This document shows positions 1,279-34,473 of a stretch of DNA of 64,000 bases, one piece after another (the stretch's first letter is position 1; each line of letters starts with the position of its first letter). The stretch covers positions 128,001 to 192,000 of the forward strand of contig CP000068.1 in assembly GCA_000002445.1 (NCBI GenBank), in the 5' to 3' direction. Source of the stretch: Trypanosoma brucei. Its lineage: Eukaryota. The notes under the pieces were generated by a model. It saw nothing but the letters and a program-made list of their open reading frames with translations. It was not told the DNA's origin and did not search any database. The position numbers and the translations under genes were made by a program.

Positions 1279-2460
1279 TCACTCCCTCAGGTAACTTGGT
1301 GCCTGTTTCCCATTGGTCTCCCCTGCGGCCACATCTTCTTTTGTTCCCGGCCGCCGCTTCCGCAAGAAAAAAATTGTGACAGCGACAATAATGAGGAAAA
1401 GGGGAACGACGGCGCACACCACGTAAATGGCAATACGTGTGCCGCTGGACAACTCGGAGGTTCCTCCTTCGGAAAGTTTATCATCATCCTCAATAACTCC
1501 GTCCTCTTTTTCCGCATCATAATCCTCACCCACTTGTTCCACTTTAAAGTCCTTACCGGGACCAGCGACGGGTTTCAGCGCGGCATCCACATGTTGCACC
1601 TGATCCTTCACTCGGTCAACGGCATTCTGCACCGCCTGACAGGCATCCACGACAGGTTTCATTGCATCAATCGCTTTTTTGTAATGCTCAATCCATCCGC
1701 TCTCATCAACGGTGCATGCAGTTGATGTGAAGTATCCGTCCATTCGACACGCGGTCTCGGCGTATTCATTACGGTGGGTGGGACTCGAAGGCTTTGGTTT
1801 AACATCATTCCACTTTTCCATGGCAGCTCCCATTCCGAGATGATCCAAACCTTTCGGTTGGCCTCTGCACTCGATTTCATAAATGCCTTCACCCACAGAT
1901 TTTGTAGACACACCCCGGCAGTTGTTGTTTTCGTTGTCACTATGCGCGTTACTGGGTTTTTTGGATATGGTCTGGCAATAACTCCTCAACACTTTTCTAA
2001 TGCCGGTGTCTTCCGATTCTCCCACTGCCTTCCTGGCGGGCTCCTTGACTTTTGATATGCCACTTTGAATAACCCCAAGTTGCTTCTCAACTTCCGTCTT
2101 GGCGCTGCCGACAACCGCTAGCGCCTCGTCAAGTTCTTTCTTTGCTTTTTCTACCGCCGCCAGGTCTTTTGATCCCTTCCCGTCTGACAGTTTCTCAAGT
2201 CCCTCGCGCTCCTTCTTTATTAAATCAGTTGCGTTATCGATGTACGTAATCTTGTGTTTCGTATGATTTACGATATTTTTTTCACCCTCCCCCACTGTAT
2301 TCGCAAGAGTGTACAAACTGCATAATATTTTCGCACTATTCGCATCGAAGTGTCCGTCTGCTGGTTGCTGGTTCTCGGCAGAGGCAAATGATACCAAAGT
2401 GAACCAAAACGGCACCAGGAGTTGAAGCGACATCTTCACACGCATGAAATACATATGCAT
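1279..2460 (-). CDS. ISG-like type I transmembrane surface glycoprotein (invariant-surface-glycoprotein-related family), paralog 1
   Basis: 393-aa ORF. N-terminal hydrophobic signal peptide (LQLLVPFWFTLVSFASA). Cys-containing extracellular domain with N-glycosylation sequons. A single C-terminal TM helix (IAIYVVCAVVPLFLIIVAVTIFFL) is followed by a short basic/Lys-containing tail (RKRRPGTKEDVAAGETNGKQ...). Shares conserved blocks with the two downstream paralogs (VLRSYCQT...NNNCRG vs VLTIYCNT...NNNCDDG). The ISG65/75-like assignment comes from architecture and memory, not a search. Confidence 0.55.
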   Translation of the reverse strand: MHMYFMRVKMSLQLLVPFWFTLVSFASAENQQPADGHFDANSAKILCSLYTLANTVGEGEKNIVNHTKHKITYIDNATDLIKKEREGLEKLSDGKGSKDLAAVEKAKKELDEALAVVGSAKTEVEKQLGVIQSGISKVKEPARKAVGESEDTGIRKVLRSYCQTISKKPSNAHSDNENNNCRGVSTKSVGEGIYEIECRGQPKGLDHLGMGAAMEKWNDVKPKPSSPTHRNEYAETACRMDGYFTSTACTVDESGWIEHYKKAIDAMKPVVDACQAVQNAVDRVKDQVQHVDAALKPVAGPGKDFKVEQVGEDYDAEKEDGVIEDDDKLSEGGTSELSSGTRIAIYVVCAVVPLFLIIVAVTIFFLRKRRPGTKEDVAAGETNGKQAPSYLRE

Positions 2461-2550
2461 ATATGAATATATGAAAATATGAACTGATATACGAATATAT
2501 TACAAACGAGGAGTGTAAAATCACTTCACTCTTGCCGAATTTTTTTCTTT

Positions 2551-2568
2551 AAAAAAAAAAAAAAAAAA
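2551..2568 (-). promoter_or_regulatory. Polypyrimidine tract (A18 on + strand) upstream of ISG-like paralog 1 - putative trans-splicing signal
   Basis: Homopolymer 90 nt upstream of the start at 2460 on the coding strand. A trypanosomatid trans-splice acceptor requires an upstream polyY tract. Confidence 0.4.
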
Positions 2569-3025
2569 GAGTGCTCCCCACTGCAGACGCAAGAAGACAA
2601 TATCCGATACTGTAGCTATTGTGTCTATTTTGATTCCTGTGTGTATGCAAAGAAAACAAAAATGGACAGTGGGACAAAATAATTTTCAATCCCAGCAAGT
2701 TGCCTACAGAGAAGTTACGGAGCTAAAGCAAACAGCAGTGCCAATAATGACGATAACAACAATAAATGAATTCAAATAACCGCTGGATAAAAGCGTCGTA
2801 TTCGCTCAATAACACTCTTTACATTACTTCAACATGTTGCTGCGTTTGGACTGGAAGTGCACTGAGGAGGGGGAAAAAAAAAAAGAAAGTAACGCATGCA
2901 ACGACTGCATCTTTTCCTTTTCAGTATTGATAAAGGCGAGGAAACGGGAAGGAGGAAGAGGCGGTGTTCGTGAATCAGCGAAACCGAATTGAATATCAAA
3001 AACAAGAAAAAAAAATGGAGAAACG

Positions 3026-4147
3026 CTAACAATCCTCTTCTTCCTCAGCGACTGCGGAAACGGGAGCGTAAGCACTCTGCACCTTCAAGCTGTTCTTTAT
3101 GCAGCGAAATAGCAAGAAACCGAGAACCAAAAAGAGTAACGAAGCAGTCACCACAATTATGCACGTGACAATGTCCTTCGATATTATTCCGTCTATAGAC
3201 GATTTCAATGACTTCTTCTCATGGTGCTTTCCAGTCGGGGTAGAGGATCGCACCAATTCCTTCAACGCATTCTTGTGCTTTTTCAACTCCTCAGCAGCGT
3301 TATGAACACTTTTTGTTGCCTCCTCCAACTTCTTAAGTTCATGTAGGGAAGAATTATAATCTCCCGTCCATTCCTCCTCAGGCACCGTACACGGACCCTC
3401 TGAAGCATATCCGTGACTTATGCAACTCGCATTCCATTGCTTGCTCGTATGTTTAACAGCTGCAAGCCCCGGTTTTGCACCATCCCAAGCGTTTATTGCA
3501 TTCGACATGGCCTCATATGTGACGTTAGCAGCAGTCACATTATCAGAACCTCCAATACTCTTACAATCAATTTTGAAGGCACCGGCTCCAGCAGCCGCAG
3601 CAATGCCATCGTCGCAGTTATTATTCACATTATGACTCTTCTTACCTTCCTTTGCACCAGTAATTGTTGTATTGCAGTATATCGTCAGTACCTTATTCAT
3701 TCCTTTGCTCTCAGAATCCCCCACTGCCTTTTTTGCGTGTTCCACGGCTTTGCTGGAGGCGTTTGTAATAATTTCATGTTGCTTCTTCACTTCTTCATCA
3801 GCTTTTGCGCTGGCGTTCAACACCGCATCGAGATGCCTCTTTATCGCATCCCCCACCGTTGCGTTCTTTGCTTTTATGGAGTCAACTAACTTACCAACCT
3901 TCTGCCGTGTCCTGTTCAAAGCAGAGGATGTGTTCTGAATAAACTTAATCTTCTGTGCTGTGGTATTTAAAATACCATCCGCAACACTTTGCATGGATCC
4001 CGCAAGGCCATACATGATGCATAATGCCCTAGCTCCTTCTTTATTAAATCTCTTGAGAGCAGGGCGCTGGCCTTTCTCAGCCGCAGCAAATGCAACGGCA
4101 GTAATTACTGATGCCAAAATGTAGGAGTGACGCAATCTTGCGCCCAT
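3026..4147 (-). CDS. ISG-like type I transmembrane surface glycoprotein, paralog 2
   Basis: 373-aa ORF. The first ~60 aa and a central ~150-aa block are identical to paralog 3. Own TM (IVTCIIVVTASLLFLVLGFLLF) and an acidic tail ending ...AVAEEEEDC. An identical 150-bp upstream region is shared with paralog 3. Confidence 0.55.
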   Translation of the reverse strand: MGARLRHSYILASVITAVAFAAAEKGQRPALKRFNKEGARALCIMYGLAGSMQSVADGILNTTAQKIKFIQNTSSALNRTRQKVGKLVDSIKAKNATVGDAIKRHLDAVLNASAKADEEVKKQHEIITNASSKAVEHAKKAVGDSESKGMNKVLTIYCNTTITGAKEGKKSHNVNNNCDDGIAAAAGAGAFKIDCKSIGGSDNVTAANVTYEAMSNAINAWDGAKPGLAAVKHTSKQWNASCISHGYASEGPCTVPEEEWTGDYNSSLHELKKLEEATKSVHNAAEELKKHKNALKELVRSSTPTGKHHEKKSLKSSIDGIISKDIVTCIIVVTASLLFLVLGFLLFRCIKNSLKVQSAYAPVSAVAEEEEDC

Positions 4148-4300
4148 ACCTTTACTACTAGTTTCAACGACACACTAAGCCTGAAATGCAATAACCACAA
4201 CACATCCACATTCATTTTTTTTATACGTACAAATACGTACAAATATATAAACAAGGGGAAAACATTGTATAAAACAGTAATTAGGAGTAACAAAGATGCA
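4148..4300. repeat. Duplicated 5' flank of ISG-like paralog 2 (copy A of a ~150-bp segment shared with 6298-6450)
   Basis: Sequence ctttactactagtttcaacgacacactaagcctgaaatgcaataaccacaacacatccacattcattttttttatacgtacaaatacg...aggagtaacaaagatgcaac is present at both loci, directly upstream of the identical start regions of paralogs 2 and 3. Confidence 0.8.
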
Positions 4301-5163
4301 ACCTAATGAAAGCAATGCACGAAATCAAACGATGCACCAAATGGCACTGTTGAAACACCGCTTTAATCATAAAGTCACGAACCGTATGTTTTCAGTGCAT
4401 GGTGACATGGTGAGTAGACAGGGGAACACTAAGCCAAATGAAAATTTTATGGATTACCACGACACCAACACTGGTCGCAACGGCCACGAAATGAGGAGAG
4501 GGATGCGGGGGGGAGGGGAAAAAAAAAAAAGAAAAAAGAAAAATTAGCAAAACAAAAGATAAAGGGAAGCAACGAAATGATCGAAGCTGGTTATAAGAAG
4601 GAATCCAAAAGAAATCCAACGAAAGAAAGAAATGAAACAAACCAAAACATCTGGCGTGAGTAACATGTTGTGTGAGCATGTCTGTCAGTTTACCCACTAA
4701 TATACAGTAATAAGAAAGATAACCCTCCAAATCCGCCTCAAGAACAAAATCCCTAAAGAAAGGAACGCCTCAATTCAAGTTGCGAAGACACAAAATTGTG
4801 TGAGTGTATTCACCGCACTGTAAACCCACTCCAACAAAAACAACGTAATTCTAACGAAATGACAACGAGTGGACAAAGCGTATAAAATAGGTATGAAAAT
4901 AACAGCAACTATAATCGTAAAGCATAGCAAGACCAACGCATTACGCATTACGAACCCAAGCACACTAACGACAACCTCGTCAAAACATACACATCCAACC
5001 GCTCCACCGCATCGGAAAGGAGAAAGGAGAAAGTCGGCAGACTCATGCACAGGTGACGGAAAATCTTCCGTTGCAAAGAAAAAAAATGAGAGAGAGCGAA
5101 GTCGAGCAAACGAAACACAAAAATAAACAAAAAAAGAACACAAACATTGTAACGGCACGACGA

Positions 5164-6297
5164 CTATATCATGAGTCGAGACCCTGACCTCTTGGTCCCA
5201 AAAGCGCTACCTCTGTTAAACCCGCGACGATTCATTAGCAAAAGTAATACACTAGTTGCGGGCACTATAGCCACAAAGCAAATGGCAACGGCAACAAGAT
5301 AACCAACAATGTCCGTGCCGCGATCCGAACTGTCGGGTGCCGGGACCAATGGTTCCGTAAGAGAATCATTACGATTTAAGTTGGAGGATCGCATCAGCCG
5401 CTGCACCACATCACCCGTCTGCGTTTTCATACCCTCAGCAGCGTTATGAACACTTTTTGTTGCCTCCTCCAACTTCTTAAGTTCATGTAGGGAAGAATTA
5501 TAATCTCCCGTCCATTCCTCCTCAGGCACCGTACACGGACCCTCTGAAGCATATCCGTGACTTATGCAACTCGCATTCCATTGCTTGCTCGTATGTTTAA
5601 CAGCTGCAAGCCCCGGTTTTGCACCATCCCAAGCGTTTATTGCATTCGACATGGCCTCATATGTGACGTTAGCAGCAGTCACATTATCAGAACCTCCAAT
5701 ACTCTTACAATCAATTCTGAAGGCACCGGCTCCAGCAGCCGCAGCAATGCCATCGTCGCAGTTATTATTCACATTATGACTCTTCTTACCTTCCTTTGCA
5801 CCAGTAATTGTTGTATTGCAGTATATCGTCAGTACCTTATTCATTCCTTTGCTCTCAGAATCCCCCACTGCCTTTTTTGCGTGTTCCACGGCTTTGCGGG
5901 AAGCGCCAGCAATAATTTCATGTTGCTCCTTTAGCTTTCTTTGGCCCCAGTCGAGAACTTCAAGTGCATCCTCTAGCTCCTTCTTTGCCCTGCTAAACTT
6001 TGCCGCATCTTCTATTGTCTCACCTTCCTCACGCTCCATCTGAACAACCTCCTCATGCCTAGCTTTAATCAGAACGAATGCTTCTTCAATATAAGCGATT
6101 TTATCGTGCATACTCTTTAAAATACCATCCGCAACACTTTGCATGGATCCCGCAAGGCCATACATGATGCATAATGCCCTAGCTCCTTCTTTATTAAATC
6201 TCTTGAGAGCAGGGCGCTGGCCTTTCTCAGCCGCAGCAAATGCAACGGCAGTAATTACTGATGCCAAAATGTAGGAGTGACGCAATCTTGCGCCCAT
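5164..6297 (-). CDS. ISG-like type I transmembrane surface glycoprotein, paralog 3
   Basis: 377-aa ORF. N-terminus MGARLRHSYILASVITAVAFAAAEKGQRPALKRFNKEGARALCIMYGLAGSMQSVADGIL is identical to paralog 2. The middle segment and C-terminus diverge (TM IVGYLVAVAICFVAIVPATSVLLLL, basic tail MNRRGFNRGSAFGTKRSGSRLMI). Confidence 0.55.
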   Translation of the reverse strand: MGARLRHSYILASVITAVAFAAAEKGQRPALKRFNKEGARALCIMYGLAGSMQSVADGILKSMHDKIAYIEEAFVLIKARHEEVVQMEREEGETIEDAAKFSRAKKELEDALEVLDWGQRKLKEQHEIIAGASRKAVEHAKKAVGDSESKGMNKVLTIYCNTTITGAKEGKKSHNVNNNCDDGIAAAAGAGAFRIDCKSIGGSDNVTAANVTYEAMSNAINAWDGAKPGLAAVKHTSKQWNASCISHGYASEGPCTVPEEEWTGDYNSSLHELKKLEEATKSVHNAAEGMKTQTGDVVQRLMRSSNLNRNDSLTEPLVPAPDSSDRGTDIVGYLVAVAICFVAIVPATSVLLLLMNRRGFNRGSAFGTKRSGSRLMI

Positions 6298-6450
6298 ACC
6301 TTTACTACTAGTTTCAACGACACACTAAGCCTGAAATGCAATAACCACAACACATCCACATTCATTTTTTTTATACGTACAAATACGTACAAATATATAA
6401 ACAAGGGGAAAACATTGTATAAAACAGTAATTAGGAGTAACAAAGATGCA
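6298..6450. repeat. Duplicated 5' flank of ISG-like paralog 3 (copy B)
   Basis: Identical to 4148-4300 by direct comparison. Continues into the 216-bp repeat listed below. Confidence 0.8.
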
Positions 6451-6649
6451 ACAGGTCACAAGTTGAACAAAACAACACGAGCACTAACATAGACTATGCA
6501 TAAATATATATAGATAAATAAAGATAAATATATTTATGCCGAGTGTATGATGTCACGGTAAATAGAGCATGGCATGAAATAAAACTATTACACCATAATG
6601 CTACTGACCTCATACCACTCACGTAACGCTCAGGAACAAAAAAAAGGGG
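6433..6649. repeat. ~216-bp direct repeat, copy 1 (downstream flank of trans-sialidase-like gene / upstream of ISG paralog 3)
   Basis: aggagtaacaaagatgcaacaggtcacaagttgaacaaaacaacacgagcactaacatagactatgcataaatatatatagataaataaag...cgctcaggaacaaaaaaaaggg recurs essentially identically at 9491-9706. Confidence 0.85.
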
Positions 6650-6962: not shown

Positions 6963-9317
6963 TCATTTCCTTACATCCAGTGTGTCATCAGTGATATCCA
7001 CAGTGTATGGGTTATATCCCGCCGGCATCTGTGGTAATCCCGCACCCGGTCGCATGGCAGCGTTTTGGGCTGCCCTCCGCTGCCGCAATACGAAGAACCC
7101 AACCAAACCAAGCACGATAAGTAACGCTGGGACCACTACAGCCGCAATCCATGCCAGGTTGCGACCACCCGATTTACCGCCTTGACCATCCCCATGATCT
7201 CCATTATCCTCATCCTCGTCTTCCAAGACAGCATCAAATGTACTTCTGTGCTTTACTGCAAGTAGCGCCTTCACATCAGCTACGCTTAGCTCATGGCTGT
7301 ACAAAAGCATGTTGAATACGGTAACACTCAGGTCGCCAGTTGCCTCACCCTTTCCGATCACTCGCTCGTTGGCTCCAACATATATCTCGTGTATCTCTGC
7401 CGACTGCGACAACGGCACAATACTGCCCTGACCATCCCCTACACGATTCCCGTCAATGTACGTATGGGCAACGCCGCCTCGCACGGTCAAGACAACCTGG
7501 TAGGTTTTCCCCTCTTCCAGAGCGAGTGTTTTGGCGCCAGCTGTCGTACCACTCAATTGGGTCCACGCCTTTTCGTCGTACCAGATACCCACGTCTGCAA
7601 TTAAGCCGGATTTGTTCCTCACGCCCACTCCAAGAAGTGGAGTGGGGTTCTTTGGTGCCTTATGGACGGCCACGCTCATCACGACTGTCAGCCCGTTGTC
7701 AATCAAATGGTACACTTTATTCTCATTTTTGCCAGATACGGGAAATACAACATGTGCGGCGCGTGTGCCCAAAGTGAAACCGGTGGTGACCCTCTTTACA
7801 GGGCCTTGTAGCGCACCATCCATGCCAAGGTATCCGTCACGCCAATGCGTGCGGTTGGCCACTTCAGACCAAAACCCAACGAGGCCCACCGTTGGGTCAA
7901 ACTTTGGCGCTGACGTGCTCTCCTCGCCCGTAGTGCCATAAAGCGCCATCACACTCCCGTCCACCTTCCTCCACAAACCCACCACTGCCTTCAGTTCATG
8001 CACACGGTCGGTGAGGTCGGTAAAGAAAATGCTTTTCAACTGGCTGAAACCCTCCTCATGCAGGGAGTACAGCCCACTCTCAGTGTGCAGGAGGGCGCTA
8101 AAAGATAACATGGATAAATGACCAGAGGAAATCGCCCCGAGGCAATGCGTCCGCTTGCTATCCGTCACCCAAAGGAGGAGCGGCCTCAATCCCGCATTCC
8201 CTGAATTGAAGAAGGCGCGGTAAGCAAATAGGATCACATCCGACCCATCCACCTTCATGTTCACGAAGTCACCTCGGTCGTCGTCATCGGAGTGATACTG
8301 GAAATTGGACAGTGCGTGCCTTTCACCCTCCGTAGCGTCAGTCCACGTCATCCCCACGTCTACGGATCGATACATCTTGTTTTTCGTCTGGTGTGCAACT
8401 ACAAGCAGCAATTCCTTCTTCCACACAAGCAGGCTGGGCTCCGTGCAATCGTCGATGTCCAGTTTAGCCGGGGTGAAGCTCCATGACTCACTCTCGTGCT
8501 TATAACGCGCAATAACGCATGTCTTAGCCCCACTCTCAGCGGACGCGACGAGAGGGAAAAGTATGGTGTCGCCCACAACAGCACCCTTTCCACCACTCTC
8601 GAAGAATTCCTTCCATGAGTGCTCCAATAGCGGCCTCTTGAACGTATCAGTCAGCGATGAAGGCTTATTCCACTTCACAACCTTGCCATCTTCCGCACCG
8701 CGGCCGCCGATAGTGCCCACGAAAAGCTTCACCTCCAAGTCGAACGCACCCTCTTGAGGTTCTACATCCTTCGCCTTGTTGCTGCTGAGTGAAAGAAGGA
8801 AAATCTTATCCTTCAGTACTATTGCCCTGGGGCCGTATTGAGCGTAGCGATGATCGGCCACCGGCTCATTCACGAAAACATTCTCAGTCTTCCATTTTTT
8901 CTCTGACATCCAACCCGCCGCCTGTGCGCTCTGGTGAGTCTCGCCAAGTGCAATAGTCTTTAGCCACACTCCGGCGTATCCGGCAGTCCACGCGTTATAT
9001 CGTGCTTCAGCGAGGGCAACAACACTCCCACCCACCGCCACGAGTGAATTACCTTCGAATAAACCGTGTTTCACATCATGACTCGAGTCACTGTGCGACA
9101 ACAAACTTTCTCTATTCCACGGTTTGAATAATTCCACCCTCCGCTTCTCAACTCCTGCAGGTTGGGAAGATGAGCCATTACTGCACACGGGGAGCAAAAG
9201 GACTGAAGCAACCAATAGTAGTAATGGTGTGTGCATCCTTTTGTAACTTTTCTCCCGTGTAGGGAAGTCATCTTTCATCCATACTCTCATGCTGGTACCT
9301 GGCTCCTGCAAATGCAC
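6963..9317 (-). CDS. Trans-sialidase/sialidase-superfamily protein, membrane-anchored, probably non-catalytic
   Basis: 784-aa ORF. The signal peptide probably starts at the internal Met (MHTPLLLLVASVLLLPVCSNG, near 9236). N-terminal RRVELFKPW resembles the TS N-terminus. One Asp-box SxDxGxTW (YRSVDVGMTWTD). C-terminal lectin-like domain carries the family motif VTVxNxxLYxxxL (VTVFNMLLYSHEL). C-terminal TM (IAAVVVPALLIVLGLVGFFVL) plus a 40-aa cytoplasmic tail. The FRIP motif position reads FEGN, i.e. the Arg is missing. Confidence 0.7.
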   Translation of the reverse strand: MHLQEPGTSMRVWMKDDFPTREKSYKRMHTPLLLLVASVLLLPVCSNGSSSQPAGVEKRRVELFKPWNRESLLSHSDSSHDVKHGLFEGNSLVAVGGSVVALAEARYNAWTAGYAGVWLKTIALGETHQSAQAAGWMSEKKWKTENVFVNEPVADHRYAQYGPRAIVLKDKIFLLSLSSNKAKDVEPQEGAFDLEVKLFVGTIGGRGAEDGKVVKWNKPSSLTDTFKRPLLEHSWKEFFESGGKGAVVGDTILFPLVASAESGAKTCVIARYKHESESWSFTPAKLDIDDCTEPSLLVWKKELLLVVAHQTKNKMYRSVDVGMTWTDATEGERHALSNFQYHSDDDDRGDFVNMKVDGSDVILFAYRAFFNSGNAGLRPLLLWVTDSKRTHCLGAISSGHLSMLSFSALLHTESGLYSLHEEGFSQLKSIFFTDLTDRVHELKAVVGLWRKVDGSVMALYGTTGEESTSAPKFDPTVGLVGFWSEVANRTHWRDGYLGMDGALQGPVKRVTTGFTLGTRAAHVVFPVSGKNENKVYHLIDNGLTVVMSVAVHKAPKNPTPLLGVGVRNKSGLIADVGIWYDEKAWTQLSGTTAGAKTLALEEGKTYQVVLTVRGGVAHTYIDGNRVGDGQGSIVPLSQSAEIHEIYVGANERVIGKGEATGDLSVTVFNMLLYSHELSVADVKALLAVKHRSTFDAVLEDEDEDNGDHGDGQGGKSGGRNLAWIAAVVVPALLIVLGLVGFFVLRQRRAAQNAAMRPGAGLPQMPAGYNPYTVDITDDTLDVRK

Positions 9318-9490
9318 GGGTTATATTCCGATAAAATTCCCCACGTTATCTTTTCACAATAATCGTCACTTGAGTCAGGCCTTCCGTCTATGAGGCGCGT
9401 TAGGCTCTGTATTATTTCACTGTAGGCGATCACTTGCTTTTCTTGTGTGAATGTCTGAATAAAAGTTAATTAAAAGCAAATGAAAATTAT

Positions 9491-9706
9491 AGGAGTAACA
9501 AAGATGCAACAGGTCACAAGTTGAACAAAACAACACGAGCACTAACATAGACTATGCATAAATATATATAGATAAATAAAGATAAATATATTTATGCCGA
9601 GTGTATGATGTCACGGTAAATAGAGCATGGCATGAAATAAAACTATTACACCATAATGCTACTGACCTCATACCACTCACGTAACGCTCAGGAACAAAAA
9701 AAAGGG
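9491..9706. repeat. ~216-bp direct repeat, copy 2 (upstream flank of trans-sialidase-like gene)
   Basis: Identical to 6433-6649 by direct comparison. Together the two copies bracket the trans-sialidase-like ORF. Confidence 0.85.
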
Positions 9707-13079: not shown

Positions 13080-14106
13080 CCGCGGGCTACGAGCAATAAA
13101 AATTCTGAACGATTTAGTCGCTGCTATTGTTGTTCTTGTTGCTCCCTTGATGATTATAATGATGATGATAATGATGTATATACACACGCGCCCACCTAAC
13201 AGGCACACTACAACTAATTACTACGACTATTAGAAATGATATCTTCCACTACCGCTGCGACTACTGACTGTACACGAAAAAATAAAAATAAAAATAAAAA
13301 AAGAAAATCCGCTACAACCACCACCGTCTTTCCCACACTTTATTTTTTTTTCTCCTTCTCCTTTCTCGCCCTTCGCTTCCTTCTAATAAACTCGGACAAA
13401 ATGTGGAGTCGTGACTGTCTCTTCGTTCTCTTGTGTGTTTTCCTCTATTATTGTTATTATTCTTTTTTTTTTTCTCTCTTCCTTTACTTTTCTTTACTGC
13501 CCTTTGGCGTGGTTGAATCCGCTATTTCCCTAAATGTTGGTTGGGAAGACTTAAGGGCAGGCGGGAAAGAAGGAAGGAAATAGCAGAAAAAAAAAAAAAA
13601 CTCTGCTTCGTCCCGCACAACAAAACACGCGCACGCACCTAATGTAAACCTTCCACTAGTGGACGGATGTTTTTTTTTTACAAAAAAGAAAAAAAAAGTC
13701 ACATGAATAAATGAAAGAGAAAAAGTAAAAGTAAAAAAAAAAAGAGAGAGAAATAGAAACACAGAGATATGAAGCGAGAAAGTAGAGAAAACGAAAAAAA
13801 TTCATACACCATGCAGGCAAACAGCAAACAAGAAATTACCGCAGTAACATAACGGTTGGACGCAAAATACCAATCGTACACCATTATTATTATTTGGCAC
13901 TCTCTCACCCCAAAAAAAAAAAAAACAAAGGTGCCATAAACAACTCATCAAAAATAACAGGAAAAGTAGAAAATAAATAAATAAACATGGAGTGCAATGT
14001 GAAGCCACACCGCAAAGCGCCGTACAGCACGGTTTGTAGTGGGAGCAAATGTAATCATTTGGCAACAATGCAAAATGGTGAAGGGTTGATGTTTGGCAGT
14101 GGTATT

Positions 14107-14117
<11 letters not shown>

Positions 14118-14142
<25 letters not shown>

Positions 14143-14143
14143 T
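14118..14143. repeat. (AT)n microsatellite preceded by (AC)4
   Basis: Read directly. Confidence 0.9.
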
Positions 14144-14421
14144 CAAATATGCATTTACGTACAAGAAAAATGCACACATGTCCGTGTGTGATGCTTTCCA
14201 GTGGGTGAACAATCATCAAATATGTCTACTCAAATTTTACAAGAAAAAAAATCCTGCAGATGGGCACAAATCAGGCAGCCGTGCACCTTTCCAGTAGAAT
14301 ATCATAAGGCAGCAGCAACACATGCGGTAATTAAAGATGTATTCGAAAAATAAAATAAAAATAAAATAAGCTTTATTCCCTCGCCAAACATCATCTCGCA
14401 CCATATCAAGTTGCATTTCCC

Positions 14422-14754
14422 TCATCCTCCTTCATTACCATCACTGCTATTGTTGTTGTTGTTATTATTATTATTATTAATATTATTATTGTTGTGATGA
14501 GTCCAGTTGGGGAGACACCCCGCGAGATGTTGCGCCTGGCAGCTGTGAAATTGTTCCGTAGCTTCCACACAATTTGGAGCCCAAAAACCCTCCACTTCAA
14601 TGCAACGCTGCGCAATGGCCCTCAACTCAACACATGGCGTAATTTCCTCCTGTTCTGCAAGCCGACGCTTAAAACCCTCCGGAACTTCCTCCCAAGGCAT
14701 TTGCCGGCCATTACCCACCGCATAAGTCGTACCGCCACCCTTCAATACAACCAT
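14422..14754 (-). CDS. Small twin-Cx9C (CHCH-domain) protein, putative mitochondrial intermembrane-space protein
   Basis: 110-aa ORF whose first ~85 aa are high-complexity. Two Cx9C pairs: CVELRAIAQRC and CVEATEQFHSC, separated by ~10 aa. The C-terminus runs into a poly-Asn tract encoded by an (AAT/ATT)n microsatellite. The true start may be the internal Met (MPWEEV...). Confidence 0.5.
   Translation of the reverse strand: MVVLKGGGTTYAVGNGRQMPWEEVPEGFKRRLAEQEEITPCVELRAIAQRCIEVEGFWAPNCVEATEQFHSCQAQHLAGCLPNWTHHNNNNINNNNNNNNNNSSDGNEGG
14450..14492. repeat. (TTG/TTA)n trinucleotide microsatellite (encodes poly-Asn at C-terminus of the Cx9C ORF)
   Basis: ttgttgttgttgttattattattattattaatattattatt read directly. 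Confidence 0.9.
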
Positions 14755-17421
14755 AATAACTTCTTTTATTTTTATTTTTATTTTTATTTTATTTTGCCGT
14801 TCTTCTTCTTCCTCTTCCTCCTCACAAGCACTGCCGATATGAAATTAAAAGTATCTAATTGATCAACTAATTAATTAAAATAACTAATGAACTAATGAAC
14901 TAATACGTTGGGGTTAATTGTGGTGAAATGGCCAGAATGAAACAGAGTGATGAGGGTTTAATTAATAAATAAACAAACCCAAACACCCGTACACTTCAGT
15001 TAATGAAGTTATTTCTTCCCTTCAGTCCTTTATTGGACTGAAGCCGTGTGTAACTTAATAACTTGCATATATGACACAACACACAGCAAAAAGAAAAAAA
15101 AGGAAGGAGAAAAAAAGTAAAGAAAAGTAAAGACTTGCGTTACAACACACAACAGCGCAATCATGAAGCACTCCAGCGTCAAAAAAATAAGGTGGAGTTA
15201 CAAATCTTATTTTGTAACCGTCTTTTTTTCTTTAAATAATAACAATAATAATAATTTGTTTATGTATTATTGTTGTTGTTGTTGTTTCTTTATTATTATT
15301 ATTATTTTCCTTTCCTTCATTTGACAGACCTGATACGGCCGAATTGGCTGGCCGCCGGGTGTAGAAAGTAAACCATTTTGGGACATAAACATAAAATTAA
15401 TTAATTAATTAGAAGAAGAGGAGGAGGAAAAAAAAAAAGAGGCATAACGAAAGTGACATTTACTCACTTTGCTGCTCACTCAAAATAAAACAAAACAAAA
15501 AAGAAAAGAAAAGAAAAGAGTTGGGGCACACCGCATTTCCTCATTAATAAAATATTCCTTTGGATTTGTTTTTTTTCTTTTTCTTTTCTTCTCTTCTTTT
15601 GTGTGCGCTGGCGAAGTTCCGCTGATGGGGGAGAAAAGAGAGGAAAAAAAAAAAGAGAAAAAGAAAAACAGGGATTTGTTCCCAAAGAAAAATAAATTAA
15701 ATAAACATGTGAATGGAAGGAGGGAGAAACAAAAAAAACAAATAAATAAATAATAATAATAAAAAGAAAGAAAGAGGGGCCACTGAGACAATTTGCTGCC
15801 ACAAAGAGGAATCCCTCATATCCACTCCCTTTTATTTCCTTCCATTACTAAATCTTTTTTTTTTCGCTTCGTTTCGTTTTTGTTTTTGTTTCGTTTCGTT
15901 TTTGTTGTTAAAAAAAAAAAAAAAGAGGAACGTGTCAGAAATGAGTAAATGATTTAAGGGAATCTTAAATAAATAAATGCATGGGAAATGTTGAGGATGA
16001 TTTGATACCGACGACATATCGCCCATTTATTTTTTGTTGTCGTTTGCTTTTCTTTTTCTTTTTCTTTTTTTCTTTTTTTTTTCAAGAAAAAAAAACTGCG
16101 CGCGATATTCCCTTTATTTATTCATTCATTCATTCTCACTTTAATTCGTACCTATCCGTATGATGATAATAATAATAATAATAACAACATTAATTATTAT
16201 ATTGAAATGCTATACCTTGAAATAGTAGTAGGTAATGATAATAAAATAGATTTTTTTTAAAAAATAAAAACACAACACACAACACACAACACGCCACCAA
16301 ATCATATGAAACGTAATAAAATATCAACAGCAGAAATAATAATAATGTTTGTTGCCGTTTCATATCGCATAATATATTTTACGCATGGACCTGCAGCAGG
16401 AGGTTTAAATGAGGCATTTTGGGAGATAATTCGGGCTGAAAGTCTCGAAAAAATGAAGAATAAAAAAATAGAATAAAAAAAACCGTCAAAAGGTGAGTTG
16501 TGAAGCATTGCAATGCAGCGAAGACGCAGCGATATAAATAAATATAAATATATGATAAATAAAATGATAATGATATAAACAAATCATTTTATTTTACCTT
16601 ATTTTAATATCTTCCTCTTTCCCCTCCAGTGTGCAGTTACGCATGTCCATTTTCTACCATAAACACAATAAACAACACATCTTTTATTTATTTATTTTTT
16701 TCTTTTCTTTTCTTTTCCTTTAAAATTTTTTTAAAAAAAAAAAATTATGTTTAGGCTGCAGGTCATCCCACCCACCCATTTCAAACACTAATTCGTTTTT
16801 GGTTTTGTTTTTTTTTTTAATTTTCCCTCCTCTTTATTTCCTCTGCTTGCGTTGTTAAAATCATACAACCTCTTAATTATTTTCAGCACTCTGACAAAAA
16901 CCAACAGAGGTGCGAAATAAATATTTTTCTCCCTCACGCGTCTCCTCTATTTTTTTTTTCACAAATAAAATAAAAGAAATTCATCAGGTCACTTCACCAT
17001 CTACAAATTATTAATTATTTTTCCTTTGATTTGCTTCGTTATTGACGTTACTATCACACTTTTTTTTTCTTTTTCCTTTTTGAACTACAGCCAACTGGGT
17101 TGTTCATTCTCCGAAACAAAAAAAAACAATAAAAATAAATAAAAATAAAGTGGCTAAATTATAAACAAACACTTTCACCACAATGTCACCCACTTGCAAA
17201 CTTATACTCACACACTCACAATCTCACATACACAGAAACATATAAATATATAAATATATATAATATTTCTTTTTAAAATTTCTCAGCTTCCCATTCCAGA
17301 AATGCCGGTAAACATCTCCTCCTCCTCCTCTACTTTATTCTCTTTTTTTTTCTTCTTTTTTTCTTCTTTTTTTCTTCCTTCACCACATGCACTTCTTTTT
17401 ATTATACTTTCCCCTCATCTC

Positions 17422-19164
17422 TCACATAATCTCAACAAGTTTTGTCTTCCGTGCCGCCAAAACAATACCGGACCGCTTGGAACGCCATAATGTTGCGTAA
17501 CACACAAGCGCTGATAATGTCATGGAAACACTCATCACAACACACACAAACGCATAACTCCCATTATTACGAAGTTGAATAGTTGCTTGCATGGGAGGTG
17601 CCACAAAACCACCCACCACACCTGCGAGAAATACAGCACCAAAATAAAAACCCAAATTAGGTCCATACAAATGCGTAGCGATAAGAGTTGGCATCACGGC
17701 AAACATACCCGCCATGCAGAAACCAATGATGCAAAGCAACAACGCAAAGGCAACGTAACTGCGGCCAAGGGCGAGAAGGCCACAACCGATACCACCAACA
17801 GTAGCACAGAAAACATATGCAAATTCAGCAGTAACTAATGAGGCGAGCCAACCAACAAGTACGGAACCAACAACTTGAAAGACACCATAAAAAGTGAAGA
17901 GGGTGGCGGCAACATCAGTTGGAATGGGCGGTACACCTGCATAAACAGTGCCTGGTTTACCCATAGACGAAATGTAAGGCACGGCTGCGTAAATGAGCGA
18001 GTAAAAAGCCCAACTGTATATGAACCAGCAAAGAAAGTTACCCATGAAAGGGAGAGTAAACATAGAGAGGAATAGTTCCCATGGTGTGAGCTTGTGGGTG
18101 TGGAGACTGCGTATTACCTGTGGTTCGTCTGCATCCATACTTGTATCCATATCAACATCAATAGCAGATGCAAAGGTGTTGTTCCTTTGACTTTGTTCAG
18201 TAACGTCCAAACCCTCACCATCATTCCCATTTTGCTGATTCGTGCCCACACCCCTCCCGTTAGGTGGAACCTTTGAGGTGTTGGTATGGCTGCCATTTTT
18301 CCTGCCCATTTCCCTCACGTCTTCTTTACCTTCATTGTGTCCATTATTCGCTGCTCCTTCTCCCCCCACAGTTGCCGGTTCATTACTTCTTCTGACCAAA
18401 CTTCCATTACCGGATTTATTTCCTTCCCGGGTTTCATCATCAGCGCTGCTGTCGTCTCTTTTGGGTTCACGGCGGCGAGCGGAAAGGGCGGTTGCGAGCA
18501 CTCCAATCGCACAAAATATCGACATAAGTTGAAAAGCCTTACGCCAGCCATATGCAACAACCCATTTCCCTGCTAATGGTGGAATAATGGCACTTCCAAT
18601 ACCTCCACCAGCAAAGTTAATTCCCATAGCCAGTCCCTGATAACGATTGAACCAAGAACTAGTTGCAGCAGCCCCAGGTGATAACATACATGCCGTACCA
18701 ATAGATGCAAAAAGGCAGTAAGTAAAAGTTACAACATAAATGTTCGCGGCGAGGGTTGAACTGATCCACAAACCAGTGAAGAGCAAAATGGTGGAAAGCG
18801 CCATCATGAACCGCGGCGGGAGCCGATCGACACAAAATCCTGCGAGAACACCAAAGGCAGGTGAAAGCCCCAACGAAACGGAATTTCCAAGACTAATTGC
18901 CGTTATGGAGGGAAACCCAAGTGACGGATCATTGTGCATATCCTCTGAGAAAATGGAATAACTGTTGTCAATACCATATGACATCAGTTGCATCAACAAC
19001 CCCGAAAGGGCCACGAGGTAACCGATTGGGTGGTCGGCGGGTTTACGGGTGAAACTTGGAAGCATAACTTTTTGCTTTTCTTCTTCTTTTCCGTATATAT
19101 TTAATATATATATATATATATACTTTCTGCTTATGCTCGTATTGGTATTCCGTTTCTCACCCAC
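17422..19164 (-). CDS. Major facilitator superfamily (MFS) transporter
   Basis: 580-aa ORF with ~12 predicted hydrophobic helices in two 6-helix halves. These are split by a long hydrophilic, N/G-rich central loop. The true start is likely the internal Met MLPSFTRKPADHP; the preceding residues are low-complexity. Confidence 0.7.
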   Translation of the reverse strand: MGEKRNTNTSISRKYIYIYILNIYGKEEEKQKVMLPSFTRKPADHPIGYLVALSGLLMQLMSYGIDNSYSIFSEDMHNDPSLGFPSITAISLGNSVSLGLSPAFGVLAGFCVDRLPPRFMMALSTILLFTGLWISSTLAANIYVVTFTYCLFASIGTACMLSPGAAATSSWFNRYQGLAMGINFAGGGIGSAIIPPLAGKWVVAYGWRKAFQLMSIFCAIGVLATALSARRREPKRDDSSADDETREGNKSGNGSLVRRSNEPATVGGEGAANNGHNEGKEDVREMGRKNGSHTNTSKVPPNGRGVGTNQQNGNDGEGLDVTEQSQRNNTFASAIDVDMDTSMDADEPQVIRSLHTHKLTPWELFLSMFTLPFMGNFLCWFIYSWAFYSLIYAAVPYISSMGKPGTVYAGVPPIPTDVAATLFTFYGVFQVVGSVLVGWLASLVTAEFAYVFCATVGGIGCGLLALGRSYVAFALLLCIIGFCMAGMFAVMPTLIATHLYGPNLGFYFGAVFLAGVVGGFVAPPMQATIQLRNNGSYAFVCVVMSVSMTLSALVCYATLWRSKRSGIVLAARKTKLVEIM

Positions 19165-19658
19165 ACTGCTTTTTTTTGTTTTATTTTGTTTTGTTTGTTC
19201 TGCTTGACTTTATTTTATTTTTTTTTATTATTATTATTTTTTTTTTTCCTTCACCCCCTTCAACTTACACTCCGCGCCTCTCTCCCTTAATTCAATGTGT
19301 AATGTTGTATCCCCGGGTTCCTTCTCGTCTTAATGTAAATTTGATGGGCACTTCGGTGTGATTTACAGATTTCAACTGAATATATAAGTGAACACGCCAC
19401 CACTTATTGAATAATACGAAACGGAAACGGCAGCGACTCCACAACAAATATGTTGCTGTCAGTAACACTTCAAGTTCTTTACTTCACTGTTTTACTAATA
19501 CGCTTGATTGATTTGTTTGTTTGTTTGTTTCGTTATTGTTATTGTTATTGCTATTCTTCACTTTGGTATGATTATCACTTGTGTAGCTCCCCTAATATTG
19601 TCCAGTTGTTTGCTTTAAAATAATATCTTACTATTCATTTTGTATTTATATTTGTGTG

Positions 19659-19681
19659 CATGTGTGTGTGTGTGTGTGTGT
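19659..19681. repeat. (TG)n microsatellite
   Basis: Read directly. Confidence 0.9.
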
Positions 19682-19782
19682 TTTTTAATTTTGAATTTGT
19701 GTAACCCACGTAATGTCAACGACAGTAGTGGAAATAAAGTTAATTTGTTTTGTTCAAAGAAAGTTAAGAAAAAAAAAATCCG

Positions 19783-19808
19783 AGAGGAGAGGAGAGGAGA
19801 GGAGAGGA
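19783..19808. repeat. (GGAGA)n pentanucleotide repeat
   Basis: gagaggagaggagaggagaggagagg read directly. Confidence 0.9.
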
Positions 19809-20180
19809 AATTGCATGACATGAATTACAGAACACCTACTTTTGGTTTATGTTTCTCCAAGAAAGAAAGAAAAAGAAAAAAAAAGAAAATCAATCACTTT
19901 TCCCAATGAGAAAAATATTTACAATCTCTAATTTTCTCCATACGTGTCTCTTCTCTCATAATCTTCCCAATATTTATATTTATATATGCTTTCAGACAGA
20001 AAAACGGGCATTAAAATAAATACAAAATGATAAGGTGTAATAAGGAAAGATAATGAAAACGACGAGAAAGCAAAAAAAAAAAAACTTCAAAGAAAAAAAC
20101 TTAAAGAGGATAGACAAAGATAAAGATATATGCTTCCATGCCCACGCAAAAGGAAGTTTATGTGTATGAAAGGGAGAGAG

Positions 20181-20206
20181 AGACAAGACAAGACAAGACA
20201 AGACAA
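20181..20206. repeat. (AGACA)n pentanucleotide repeat
   Basis: agacaagacaagacaagacaagacaa read directly. Confidence 0.9.
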
Positions 20207-21690
20207 AGGAAAGAAAAGAGAAGATAAAAAGAAGATAAAAAGAAAAAAAGGAATGAAAGAAAACACTGAGACTGAGGCTTCAGAGCCTAACGGTCGGAGG
20301 AGAAGTAAATATTTTTTTTTTAAAACAAAAAAAAGGTAAAGAAGGAACGCATGACGAGATGTGCAATCACTTGCATATAAATGTTGATCATAATTATTAT
20401 CGCACATGCATGCATAAATGCATATAAATATAAATATATATATATATTTATATTTATATTATTTGTGTGACCACTACACATGACGTGGGGAGGCAAAAAA
20501 AAAAAAAAGTAGCTGTTTAAAATACAACATATGACGCGAAGAGCAAAAAGAACCATCACCAAAAACTCAAGGTTCTCACAAGAACAAATTAAAAAAAGAA
20601 AAAAGAAAAAAAGAGAAACCAACAACTATCCCTAATAGGAATATAATACTTTAGAGATGAGACGTCTCTCCCTTCTGTTTCTTCTCACTTGAACCCACAT
20701 GTGGTGCGCTTCATTTCTGATGTTAAATCACGTCATTATAAATTTTTAAAACATGTACCGCCACCATCACCAGCGCGTTTCCCTCCTCCCCCCTCCTCCT
20801 CCGTTATTTTCTTTTTTTTTTAAAAATAAATACACGCGTATCCCTTAATTATTTCCCTTAACCAAATGCATTCCCCTCATTCAAAAATCACTTATCATTT
20901 CCCCATTTTTTTCATCGGCACTTTTGGCGCTTTTGGCGTTGTTTTATTCTCTGCTTTTTTTTTTCTCTTTTCAACATTGCGGTCAGTTGATTGGTTCCGT
21001 TATTTCTTCAATGAGTCACATTCATATATATATTTTTTTTATTTTATTTTATTTTTTCTCACGCCCTCACACAACCAGACACACATCCAAGTGCGTTTAT
21101 ATATATATATATATACATGTATTTATGTATTTATATGAGCGTCTTCTTTTCTTTTCTTTTTCTTTCCTCCTTTCCGAAACATTTAATCAAATATTCGCTA
21201 CACGTTTTATCATCTCTCTTTCTCTCGTTTTCTTTCCTCTTTTTTTTTCTTTTATTTTTCCATCCTCCTCGCTTCATATTGTGCCGTACACCTCTCTAAG
21301 CAGCGTTTAAAAAAAAAAAAAAAGACGAAAAACAAAACAAAACAATCACACACATTTTTTTTTTAAAAATCATTTTTTGCGCTCGCGCTGTTTTGGCGTT
21401 TCCAAACAAACGCATGGGGTTAAATGCGCACATACGCACATACGCACGTATGTAGTCATAAGAAAAAAAAAAACACACAGAACAGCAAATTATAAATAAT
21501 AAATAACGGTAAGAAGCAACAAAAACTATTATAATAATTTTGAAAAAGAAAAATAAAAAAAAGAAAAAAAAACAATCACCTGCAAATCGAAATCTCGAAG
21601 GAAAGGGGGAAAAGGAAAGAAAGAGAGAAAGAAAACAATGCGAACACAGACACATACACGCGTGCATATGCAAATACGCAACCATGTAAG

Positions 21691-21820
21691 TAAATATATA
21701 TAAATAAATAAATATTTATATTTATATATTTATATATATTTATATATATTTATATATTTATATATTTATATTTATATATTTATATATTTATATATATTTA
21801 TATTTATATATATATATACA
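21691..21820. repeat. AT-only minisatellite, unit ~TATATATTTA (8-10 bp), ~13 units
   Basis: tttatatatttatatatatttatatatatttatatatttatatattta... lies directly 3' of the RING-finger gene stop. Confidence 0.85.
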
Positions 21821-21850
21821 TACCATTACACCTTTGTAGGAAATACTAAC

Positions 21851-22804
21851 TCACCTCGTAATACTCCACATGAGTGGCCCGCGCCTGCAGAAGGGACAAT
21901 TGCCCAAAAGTTGTGCATCTCCAACGCATAAAATGTTTCCACAACACAAAAGCTCCACAAAACAACCTTCAGGTGGAGCCTCTAAACATACACCGCACAC
22001 ATCCTCCGATTCTCCAAAAGGTGCTGATGACTGCAGAAAAGCTGGTGGGACAAGTTGAACAGCGGGGGGCACCGATATAACCTTTTCTTTTCCGCCTCCT
22101 TGCGAAACTGTGGATGAAGCCAAAGTAGACAAGGAAGCATTTGCCGCATCTCTTTGCTCACCATCACCATCACCATCATCACTAGAATATCCTCGCCTAA
22201 GTTGGTTCCCTCCACCACCATAAACATTATTGTTATTATTATTATTATTATTGTCATTGTTGTTATTATGACTACTATTACCATTACTATTTCCCTCCCT
22301 CTGTAAGTTGGCAGCACCGACACGGTTAAGGCTTAGGCATCCGCTACCACTATGGCGCCCAGCCAAAAGAATATTTGCATTTGCCTCTGCAACACTACTG
22401 CTGAAGGGTTCAGATGAGGTGGCACTACGCTCTGCCATTTCTATTCCCCTCCGTGTGGGTGCCATTACATTTGATTCTGCTGCATATGTCACCGCTATGG
22501 TGCTTGCCGCTGGAGAATTCATTCCCGTTCCCGTTCCCGTTAATCTTCTTCTTTCTTCTGTTGTTGTTGATGGGGGTGTTGGGGATTGCAGTAGCCGGCG
22601 TTGTCCAGCAGCATGCATTACCTTAAGGAGTGTTGGTTGCGAGAGTTTTATTGCCCGCCTCCGCTTGTTGCTGTCGTTGATGTCCGTCACGTCCACGTGT
22701 TTGCTCTCTGTTAGCGTTGATTTCGAAGGCAAAAGGGAAAGCAAAAGAAGAAAAATAAAATAAAATACTGGAAATACAGAAAATACTAACAGCGAATACG
22801 TCAA
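21851..22804 (-). CDS. RING-finger (C3HC4-type) zinc-finger protein with poly-Asn low-complexity region
   Basis: 317-aa ORF. The C-terminus CGVCLEAPPEGCFVELLCCGNILCVGDAQLLGNCPFCRRG fits the Cx2C...CxH-like...Cx2C RING spacing. Internal NNNNDNNNNNNNNN tract. Confidence 0.55.
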   Translation of the reverse strand: MTYSLLVFSVFPVFYFIFLLLLSLLPSKSTLTESKHVDVTDINDSNKRRRAIKLSQPTLLKVMHAAGQRRLLQSPTPPSTTTEERRRLTGTGTGMNSPAASTIAVTYAAESNVMAPTRRGIEMAERSATSSEPFSSSVAEANANILLAGRHSGSGCLSLNRVGAANLQREGNSNGNSSHNNNNDNNNNNNNNNVYGGGGNQLRRGYSSDDGDGDGEQRDAANASLSTLASSTVSQGGGKEKVISVPPAVQLVPPAFLQSSAPFGESEDVCGVCLEAPPEGCFVELLCCGNILCVGDAQLLGNCPFCRRGPLMWSITR

Positions 22805-32044: not shown

Positions 32045-32133
32045 ACACCCCGCACTACCACCGCAGTGTAACGGATTGTATACACTACTGGCGTATGATA
32101 AACAAAGTGAAGTTATCTACAAACTCGCGTACG

Positions 32134-32151
32134 TATATATATATATATATT
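32134..32151. repeat. (TA)n microsatellite
   Basis: Read directly. Confidence 0.85.
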
Positions 32152-34089: not shown

Positions 34090-34473
34090 TCACTTCAATG
34101 CTTCAGGCCTTGCAATAAGCACCGTTTCGTAATGGCTGCGGCAATACAAATCCCAATAGAAAAGTCCCCACGTCCAACATCCCACCGCCAATGCTGCACA
34201 ATACAACGGCGTAATGGTCAACAAATTCACAAAATGTGGAATGGCAAATAACCCGCCGAGGTCGAGCTTGCGGACGAGTTCATAATTCATGAAAGCGGCT
34301 TCATTTCTTGCGCCCACTTCTGCGCCTTTAGCACTGGCCTCATATGCATGAGAAGAGCGAACATGCGCATGCATCGGTTGCATGGATGTTTTTGGTTCCG
34401 TCACTGCCGCAGATGAGAGACGTACCCGAGACGGAGCAGTTGCAGTGGCAAGTCGAATGATTGAGCGCCGCAT
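34090..34473 (-). CDS. Small hypothetical protein with mitochondrial-presequence-like N-terminus and one/two TM segments
   Basis: 127-aa ORF. Arg/Ser/Thr/Ala-rich N-terminus (MRRSIIRLATATAPSRVRLSSAAV). C-terminal hydrophobic stretch (LGGLFAIPHFVNLLTITPLYCAALAVGCWTWGLFYW). Isolated in a ~4.8-kb region that otherwise lacks ORFs. Confidence 0.4.
   Translation of the reverse strand: MRRSIIRLATATAPSRVRLSSAAVTEPKTSMQPMHAHVRSSHAYEASAKGAEVGARNEAAFMNYELVRKLDLGGLFAIPHFVNLLTITPLYCAALAVGCWTWGLFYWDLYCRSHYETVLIARPEALK

Follow-up and report, generated by a model that had tools for sequence, protein, structure and literature searches.

A tandem array of three ISG65-75 family genes on Trypanosoma brucei chromosome 5 contains a putative old paralog and an apparent gene conversion mosaic

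The invariant surface proteins of bloodstream trypanosomes are receptors for host molecules. Complement C3 is the ligand of the invariant surface glycoprotein (ISG) ISG65, suramin uptake is mediated by ISG75, and the two have been considered as vaccine candidates. The window analyzed here is a 64-kb stretch of T. brucei chromosome 5 that carries three intact minus-strand open reading frames (ORFs) of 393, 373, and 377 aa. Their products exactly match Tb927.5.410, Tb927.5.420 (AAZ11157), and Tb927.5.430 (AAZ11158) of T. brucei brucei TREU927, abbreviated below to.410,.420, and.430, and orthologs that are 98-99% identical are found in T. b. gambiense, T. b. equiperdum, and T. equiperdum. The genes very probably encode ISG-family type I glycoproteins in which.410 is an ancient member and.420 and.430 form a conversion mosaic; we infer a receptor-like role in bloodstream forms, with C3 an unlikely ligand.

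1279..2460, minus strand: Tb927.5.410, 393 aa, ISG65-75 family type I membrane glycoprotein, 42.9-43.0 kDa, isoelectric point (pI) 5.9, predicted old paralog
3026..4147, minus strand: Tb927.5.420, 373-aa ISG65-75 family protein, 39.8 kDa, pI 9.1, 11 N-X-S/T sequons, PF11727 E = 6.1e-93
5164..6297, minus strand: Tb927.5.430, 377-aa ISG65-75 family protein, 40.6 kDa, pI 8.1, six sequons, PF11727 E = 8.9e-93

ISG65 is a complement C3/C3b receptor of known structure (PDB 7pi6, 7zgj, 8ovb, and 9a3g). It is 24-25% identical to the three proteins and is 436 aa in length compared with 373-393 aa here. The.410-.430 bundle is shorter than that of ISG65 and lacks the segments of helix 1 and the last helix that bear ISG65 R77 and Y293. 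The ISG65 linker to the transmembrane (TM) segment has 73 residues and is disordered, which lets the bundle reach above the coat of variant surface glycoprotein (VSG) (PMC9424271); the linker is shorter in.410-.430. ISG75 (PDB 8rd2) is encoded by the neighboring array Tb927.5.350-400 and comprises 522-523 aa, including a C-terminal extension that is long and either helical or disordered (PMC4619645, PMC11065263). Neither the ISG75-type length of ∼520 aa nor its extended C-terminal helical region is found in.410-.430, and ISG75 is absent from the 11 proteins matched (E ≤ 0.001) by a profile of the three paralogs in a representative sequence library.

PF11727-type ectodomains are also present in Tb927.2.1600, Tb927.10.9450, Tb927.5.610/.630 (“acidic phosphatase, ISG65-like”), and TbgISG43. 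The identity of Tb927.2.1600 and an acidic phosphatase-annotated protein to.410-.430 is 18-22%, and a single OrthoFinder hierarchical orthogroup unites.410,.420, and.430 with Tb927.2.1600, Tb927.10.9450, and one Trypanosoma congolense gene (PMC10361982). TbgISG43 (Tbg972.5.200) was found by hydrogen-deuterium exchange mass spectrometry together with small-angle X-ray scattering to form a three-helix bundle whose membrane-proximal linker is disordered (PMC11065263). Its mass favors the gambiense.410 ortholog (42.9 kDa) and the start of the construct at aa 22 favors.420/.430; neither fits fully, and the residue numbers published for TbgISG43 (PMC11065263) match none of the compared sequences exactly. 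HpHbR, the factor H receptor, GARP, and MISP are three-helix-bundle proteins without detectable sequence similarity to.410-.430. They are glycosylphosphatidylinositol-anchored, and lack both the ISG cysteine-rich head and the combination of TM segment and tail. The IGPs are endoplasmic reticulum (ER)-resident proteins that combine PF16825/DUF5075 with a C-type lectin-like domain, and neither domain is matched in.410-.430 by Pfam at E ≤ 1. IGPs and ISGs are independent clades (PMC4497807). On these Pfam results the IGP family was rejected as a home for.410-.430, as was the trans-sialidase family.

The assignment of.410-.430 to the ISG family was established by profile and sequence searches. Pfam PF11727 (ISG65-75) matched.410,.420, and.430 at profile positions 2-281 of 281 with scores of 296.6, 311.5, and 311.0 bits, respectively, and E-values of 2e-88 to 6e-93; the gathering cut-off for this family is 25.1 bits. 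HMMER was used for an exhaustive search of 1.84 billion representative sequences with the three-paralog profile, and the 11 proteins retrieved all have ISG-family names or belong to ISG clusters. They include two T. congolense proteins (E = 5e-62 and 2e-58), ISG65, ISG64, and Trypanosoma vivax ISGs, and the remainder are an ISG-like “acidic phosphatase,” Tb927.2.1600, and an “ISG65-like” chromosome 11 protein. The only sequence relatives in the PDB are ISG65 chains (E = 3e-11 to 1.6e-8). Three word-indexed homolog searches returned only the three genes and their T. b. gambiense orthologs. These results identify.410-.430 as true members of the ISG65-75 (PF11727) superfamily. The family assignment was already known, and UniProt labels two of the three “Invariant surface glycoprotein.”

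AlphaFold was used to predict the.410 ectodomain (aa 28-300) from a 22-sequence family alignment. The model has a mean pLDDT (predicted local distance difference test) value of 82.7 and a predicted template modeling score of 0.78, and contains three long helices (aa 40-93, 100-146, and 257-295), the second and third of which are separated by a small region of sheet and loops. A Foldseek search of the PDB with this model placed ISG65 on top (9a3g, E = 1.8e-9; 8ovb_C, E = 5.9e-9; 7pi6_A, E = 1.9e-5), followed by ISG75, MISP, HpHbR, GARP, the transferrin receptor, and the factor H receptor. The original prediction proposed an array of three ISG65/ISG75-like genes from architecture alone and named BLASTP/HMMER searches and structure prediction as the checks. 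Homology among all three ORFs, best matches to the ISG family rather than to a non-surface family, and a three-helix bundle nearest to ISG65 bear out that proposal. Confirming the fold adds little that is new, and the useful output is the concrete leads described below.

Signal peptides and TM segments were called from hydropathy and homology. The three N-termini are basic then hydrophobic and end in ASA|E or AAA|E (KD11 maxima, 1.95-2.54). Near the C-terminus of each protein is a single, strongly hydrophobic segment (KD19, 2.7-3.1), beyond which the tail of 19-24 residues includes one or two lysines. The two terminal elements of.410 are located as follows.

2377..2460, minus strand: predicted signal peptide of.410, aa 1-28, cleaved at ...SFASA|EN (hydropathy)
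1363..1434, minus strand: predicted TM helix of.410, ∼aa 343-366 (KD19 peak, 3.08)

Residues 3-4 of.410 vary by strain (MHMYF in TREU927, MHTEF in gambiense/equiperdum; codons 2446-2460) and the remainder is 98% conserved; the true start of.410 may be Met6 or Met10. The.410 tail, RKRRPGTKEDV...PSYLRE, is ISG64/65-like and aligns with VKRRRNNSHDV of ISG65 and with ISG64. Each ectodomain has six cysteines in register, and Cys43, 160, 180, 197, 244, and 255 of.430 align with Cys43, 168, 181, 200, 240, and 251 of ISG65. In the 22-sequence alignment four of the six columns are invariant and two are ≥90% conserved. Between the last bundle helix and the TM segment lie ∼47 residues in.410 and roughly 20-35 residues in.420/.430. 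The common layout is a signal peptide, then a disulfide-braced three-helix bundle whose helices 2 and 3 are joined by a loop-rich, cysteine-containing head, then a short linker of low complexity, a TM segment, and a cytoplasmic tail. The original prediction had described a signal peptide, a cysteine-containing ectodomain, a single TM segment, and a short tail in all three proteins, and had cited scattered conserved motifs. Both descriptions hold: the motifs SYCQTIS, NENNNCRG, and KWNDVKPK in.410 correspond to IYCNTT, NVNNNCDDG, and AWDGAKPG in.420 and.430. The calculated pI values of the three proteins (5.9, 9.1, and 8.1 for.410,.420, and.430) are widely spread despite the common fold.

The array consists of one divergent and two similar members. 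BLASTP alignment shows that.420 and.430 are 69% identical overall and that.410 is 28% identical to either one (E = 1e-39 to 8e-40, far beyond chance). On the coding strand.410 lies farthest downstream, in agreement with the earlier description of the 3′-most member as the more divergent. The closest relatives outside T. brucei are T. congolense IL3000 CCC90321 and CCC90319, annotated as “65 kDa invariant surface glycoprotein” or conserved hypothetical. They have a similar length (365-374 aa), are 31-34% identical in BLAST alignments, and are the two T. congolense matches (E = 2e-58 and 5e-62, respectively) of the profile search; their accessions are two apart, which suggests a tandem array in T. 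congolense too. Orthology was based on reciprocal BLAST scores, without bootstrap support. The.410 protein and CCC90321 are reciprocal best matches at 180 and 206 bits compared with 129-133 bits for the alternatives, and.420/.430 and CCC90319 are reciprocal best matches at 163-183 compared with 119-140 bits. Each side of the split has its own T. congolense counterpart, and.410 is therefore a putative old paralog whose separation from.420/.430 would predate the divergence of T. brucei and T. congolense. By these BLAST relationships.410 and the.420/.430 lineage appear to be separate conserved genes shared with T. congolense, and the label “T. brucei spp.-specific protein” on the gambiense entries appears too narrow because these counterparts exist. 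The 98% identity of.410 between brucei and gambiense indicates it is not evolving fast now. Lineage-specific diversification, which the original prediction had suggested for this locus, does not apply to.410, and the recent dynamics lie instead in the.420/.430 pair.

The.420 and.430 genes are divided into four blocks that alternate between near-identity and unrelatedness at the DNA level.

3966..4302, minus strand: block A of.420, 155 nt of 5′ flank plus codons 1-60, 337 nt, 100% identical to 6116-6452
6116..6452, minus strand: block A of.430, 100% identical to the.420 copy
3762..3965, minus strand: block B of.420, codons ∼61-128, the C-terminal half of helix 1, the helix 1-helix 2 (H1-H2) turn, and the N-terminal half of helix 2
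5906..6115, minus strand: block B of.430, same structural position, no sequons
3289..3761, minus strand: block C of.420, the C-terminal part of helix 2, the cysteine-rich head loops, and the N-terminal part of helix 3, ∼99% identical to 5433-5905
5433..5905, minus strand: block C of.430 (473 nt)
3026..3288, minus strand: block D of.420, the end of helix 3, linker, TM segment (∼3107-3172, by hydropathy), and tail RCIKNSLKVQSAYAPVSAVAEEEEDC
5164..5432, minus strand: block D of.430, the end of helix 3, linker, TM segment (∼5236-5310), and tail NRRGFNRGSAFGTKRSGSRLMI

The DNA identity between.420 and.430 is 46% in block B and 47% in block D, which is the level of unrelated intergenic DNA. Block D begins at codon ∼291 and the divergence carries on into the 3′ flank. 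Position 6450, the upper limit given in the original prediction, is non-coding and lies near the end of the identical upstream block (6116-6452). The block D identity to T. congolense CCC90319 is 32% for.430 versus 16% for.420. Three changes between brucei and gambiense (I→V, A→V, and H→Q) occur in block C of both paralogs at homologous positions (164/162, 232/230, and 271/269), and a K/R polymorphism at 194/192 is spread differently between the paralogs in different strains. Because the same strain substitutions occur in both paralogs, the simplest reading of the sequences is continuing gene conversion that is confined to blocks A and C.

Block B also distinguishes the two proteins in potential glycosylation. 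All six asparagines in block B of.420 are within N-X-S/T sequons, and block B of.430 has no sequon. A count of six sequons never arose in 20,000 shuffles of the segment, nor in 20,000 segments drawn with the composition of the remaining ectodomain. Two of these.420 sequons recur in.410 (N61/N65 and N72/N76), which indicates the.420 module is ancient rather than foreign. Helix positions in block B were taken from the AlphaFold models and the published ISG65 topology (PMC9424271). In ISG65 the H1-H2 turn and the C-terminus of the last bundle helix lie together at one end of the bundle, and the head loops lie at the other (PMC9424271). By analogy with this topology, rather than from coordinates, blocks B and D should form one contiguous end of the bundle. 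The mosaic with its pattern of concerted evolution and the differential sequons are modest new descriptive points.

The relationship to complement binding was evaluated by aligning the C3 contact residues of ISG65. In ISG65, Y293A abolishes C3d binding, R77 forms a hydrogen bond with the C3 TED domain, and W211A reduces binding (PMC10140031, Sulzen et al.). Residue numbering was confirmed against ISG65 of gambiense. Neither R77 nor Y293 has an aligned residue in.410,.420,.430, or either T. congolense relative; R77 is within a 10-residue segment and Y293 is within a segment of ∼17 residues that are present only in ISG65/ISG64. W211 aligns with valine or leucine in.410-.430. The hot-spot residues sit in insertions that are absent from.410-.430, so C3 binding in the manner of ISG65 is unlikely. 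The three proteins are probably not C3 receptors of the ISG65 kind, for which the alignment makes a good, not conclusive, case.

Published data place the three genes in bloodstream forms. All three were listed as “ISG65-like” in 2008 (Koumandou et al., PMC2443814). The mRNA is elevated in bloodstream forms 3.5-5.1-fold for.420 and 2.1-2.2-fold for.430, and.410 is among the few transcripts responsive to serum level, dithiothreitol, and clathrin knock-down (PMC2443814). Ribosome profiling shows a higher translational efficiency in bloodstream forms for.430 (“ISG65/75 domain protein”) (PMC4210626). The Lister 427 counterpart of.410 was recovered in the bloodstream surface-labeled proteome with eight peptides, 26.7% coverage, and 346-fold enrichment (Gadelha et al. 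2015, PMC4587319), and was assigned to the cell-surface phylome family Fam49 (PMC4587319). No report of a ligand or function for.410-.430 was found in the literature searched.

Four other explanations were weighed against these data. A perfect 337-nt and a near-perfect 473-nt repeat 2.1 kb apart can be mis-assembled, and a collapsed or chimeric repeat could imitate a mosaic. That the.420/.430 pattern is such an artefact is hardly credible, because independent assemblies of T. b. gambiense DAL972, T. b. equiperdum, and T. equiperdum contain the same mosaic proteins, as does a second haplotype entry for TREU927. The gambiense locus has an identical gene order, and the strain-specific substitutions common to the paralogs are in block C only. 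Recent duplication of.410 followed by fast divergence under immune selection would fit its location in the same tandem array and the frequent species-specific diversification of trypanosome surface arrays; Fam49 consists of species-specific clades of tandem duplicates (PMC3605285). This history is very improbable in light of the two reciprocal best BLAST relationships, the 98% identity of.410 between brucei and gambiense, and the two sequons and ISG64/65-type tail that.410 shares with other family members. It is also improbable that.410-.430 are functional equivalents of ISG65 and thus further receptors for C3/C3b. ISG65 is their closest relative in sequence and structure, the fold and cysteine framework are common to both, and several trypanosome three-helix-bundle proteins bind complement components (10.64898/2026.08.17.745214). 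Set against this kinship are the identity of only 24-25%, the restriction of the R77 and Y293 segments to ISG65/64, and the replacement of W211. A 37-protein screen combined with iterative BLAST for ISG homologs gave signals only for ISG65, the factor H receptor, Tb927.10.3620, and Tb927.11.1470, although the presence of.410-.430 in the panel is not established (10.64898/2026.08.17.745214).

Residence in internal secretory or endo-lysosomal compartments is the remaining alternative, and IGPs, which are ER-resident lookalikes of ISGs, show that an ISG-like architecture is no guarantee of surface location (PMC4497807). The hyperLOPIT study lists.430 as a “secretory/endocytic 1” marker together with p67 (Tb927.5.1810) (Moloney et al. 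2023, Supplementary Data 5, PMC10361982), which groups it with lysosomal and endocytic markers rather than showing it at the surface. Neither.420 nor.430 was found in the surface-proteome supplementary files that were searched (PMC4587319). Internal residence is nevertheless unlikely:.410 is 346-fold enriched after surface labeling, ISGs are shared between endosomes and the surface so that an endocytic class is compatible with surface cycling (PMC4587319), and none of the three proteins has the DUF5075 or C-type lectin domain of the IGPs by Pfam. The localization data for.420 and.430 count against a surface receptor-like role for the array, and further points limit the reading as a whole. The function proposed for.410-.430 is an extrapolation from ISG65/ISG75 at 14-25% identity. 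The full-length.430 AlphaFold model, built from a five-sequence alignment, is poor (pLDDT, 48) and was used for secondary structure; it has the same three long helices and ISG65 is again first in Foldseek. The placement of gaps inside long helices is uncertain, so the absence of the R77/Y293 insertions depends on the alignment. The three-dimensional placement of the mosaic blocks rests on secondary structure and the published ISG65 topology.

In bloodstream forms.410-.430 most likely serve as receptor-like proteins of low abundance, as do ISG65 and ISG75. Their cycling would run between endosomes and the cell surface or flagellar pocket, and a host macromolecule would be bound through the helical bundle. 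The three different tails and 3′ flanks could cause trafficking and mRNA control to differ among the three. The bundle region that varies between.420 and.430 would correspond to the ISG65 ligand region, and the variation might confer a different specificity or glycan masking. By this analogy.420 and.430 probably have different ligand faces or shielding, are trafficked differently, and are under different mRNA regulation, because the bundle end, linker, TM segment, tail, and 3′ flank are different modules and the.420 module is sequon-rich. A more specific proposal, put forward tentatively as one possibility, is a receptor pair with the same head and different bases. Conversion would homogenize the signal peptide, head, and core, and the variable base together with the linker, TM segment, tail, and 3′ untranslated region would be protected from it, leaving two receptors that differ in specificity or shielding and in trafficking. 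If true, one member of the pair might be an open receptor and the other a glycan-masked variant, with the base module corresponding to the ligand-binding region of ISG65. The pair is a natural domain swap with identical heads and different bases, glycosylation, TM segments, and tails, and could show which part of an ISG sets ligand binding and which sets trafficking.

The locus is chromosome-internal and surrounded by housekeeping genes. Every ORF of at least 200 aa across the window is on the same strand as.410-.430, which is the pattern of one trypanosome polycistron. The three genes are tandem, co-transcribed genes between the ISG75 array and a trans-sialidase gene. The latter (6963-9317, minus strand), the next gene upstream on the coding strand, has BNR_3 and TS_C domains by Pfam and is named Tb927.5.440 (PMC3605285). 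It belongs to a basal-branching trans-sialidase lineage without a T. vivax ortholog (PMC3605285). Its 784-aa product, read from a GTG (775 aa in gambiense), has a C-terminal hydrophobic segment, RQRR, and a 35-residue tail, and from these features looks transmembrane-anchored. The T. b. gambiense gene order is identical: trans-sialidase,.430,.420,.410, and then an ISG75-type gene on the opposite strand (FN554968.1 locus 19583-20659). Because this opposite-strand gene follows the.410 ortholog, the transcription unit appears to end with.410, with a convergent strand switch between it and the ISG75 array. The ISG75-type gambiense product has 358 aa and looks truncated relative to the 522-523 aa of ISG75. 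An ISG75 fragment was sought in bases 1-1278 of the window and none was found.

A 217-nt stretch upstream of.430 (6432-6648) is 100% identical to a stretch upstream of Tb927.5.440 (9490-9706). The last 21 nt of this repeat overlap the block common to the.420 and.430 upstream regions, and the intergenic, presumably RNA-processing, regions are therefore likewise a patchwork. The rest of the polycistron (11451-56508, minus strand) is ordinary housekeeping sequence encoding the complex I 51-kDa subunit, an MFS transporter, a DRC7-like flagellar protein, a Band 7/SPFH protein, V-ATPase subunit d, a prefoldin subunit, an LRR protein, and several ORFs without a Pfam domain, one of which has 2127 aa. 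G+C content is markedly low at 14001-22000 and 32001-36000 (0.32-0.40 compared with 0.45-0.55 elsewhere), two stretches located between housekeeping genes. A Pfam search of the fragmented ORFs at 61-64 kb gave no match. Short ORFs on both strands overlap in a cluster at 61400-63560, and the ORF at 63040-63429 (minus strand) bears a C-X2-C-X4-H-X4-C zinc-knuckle-like string, CFRCGKLWHYSTSC; the cluster may be a degenerate retroelement.

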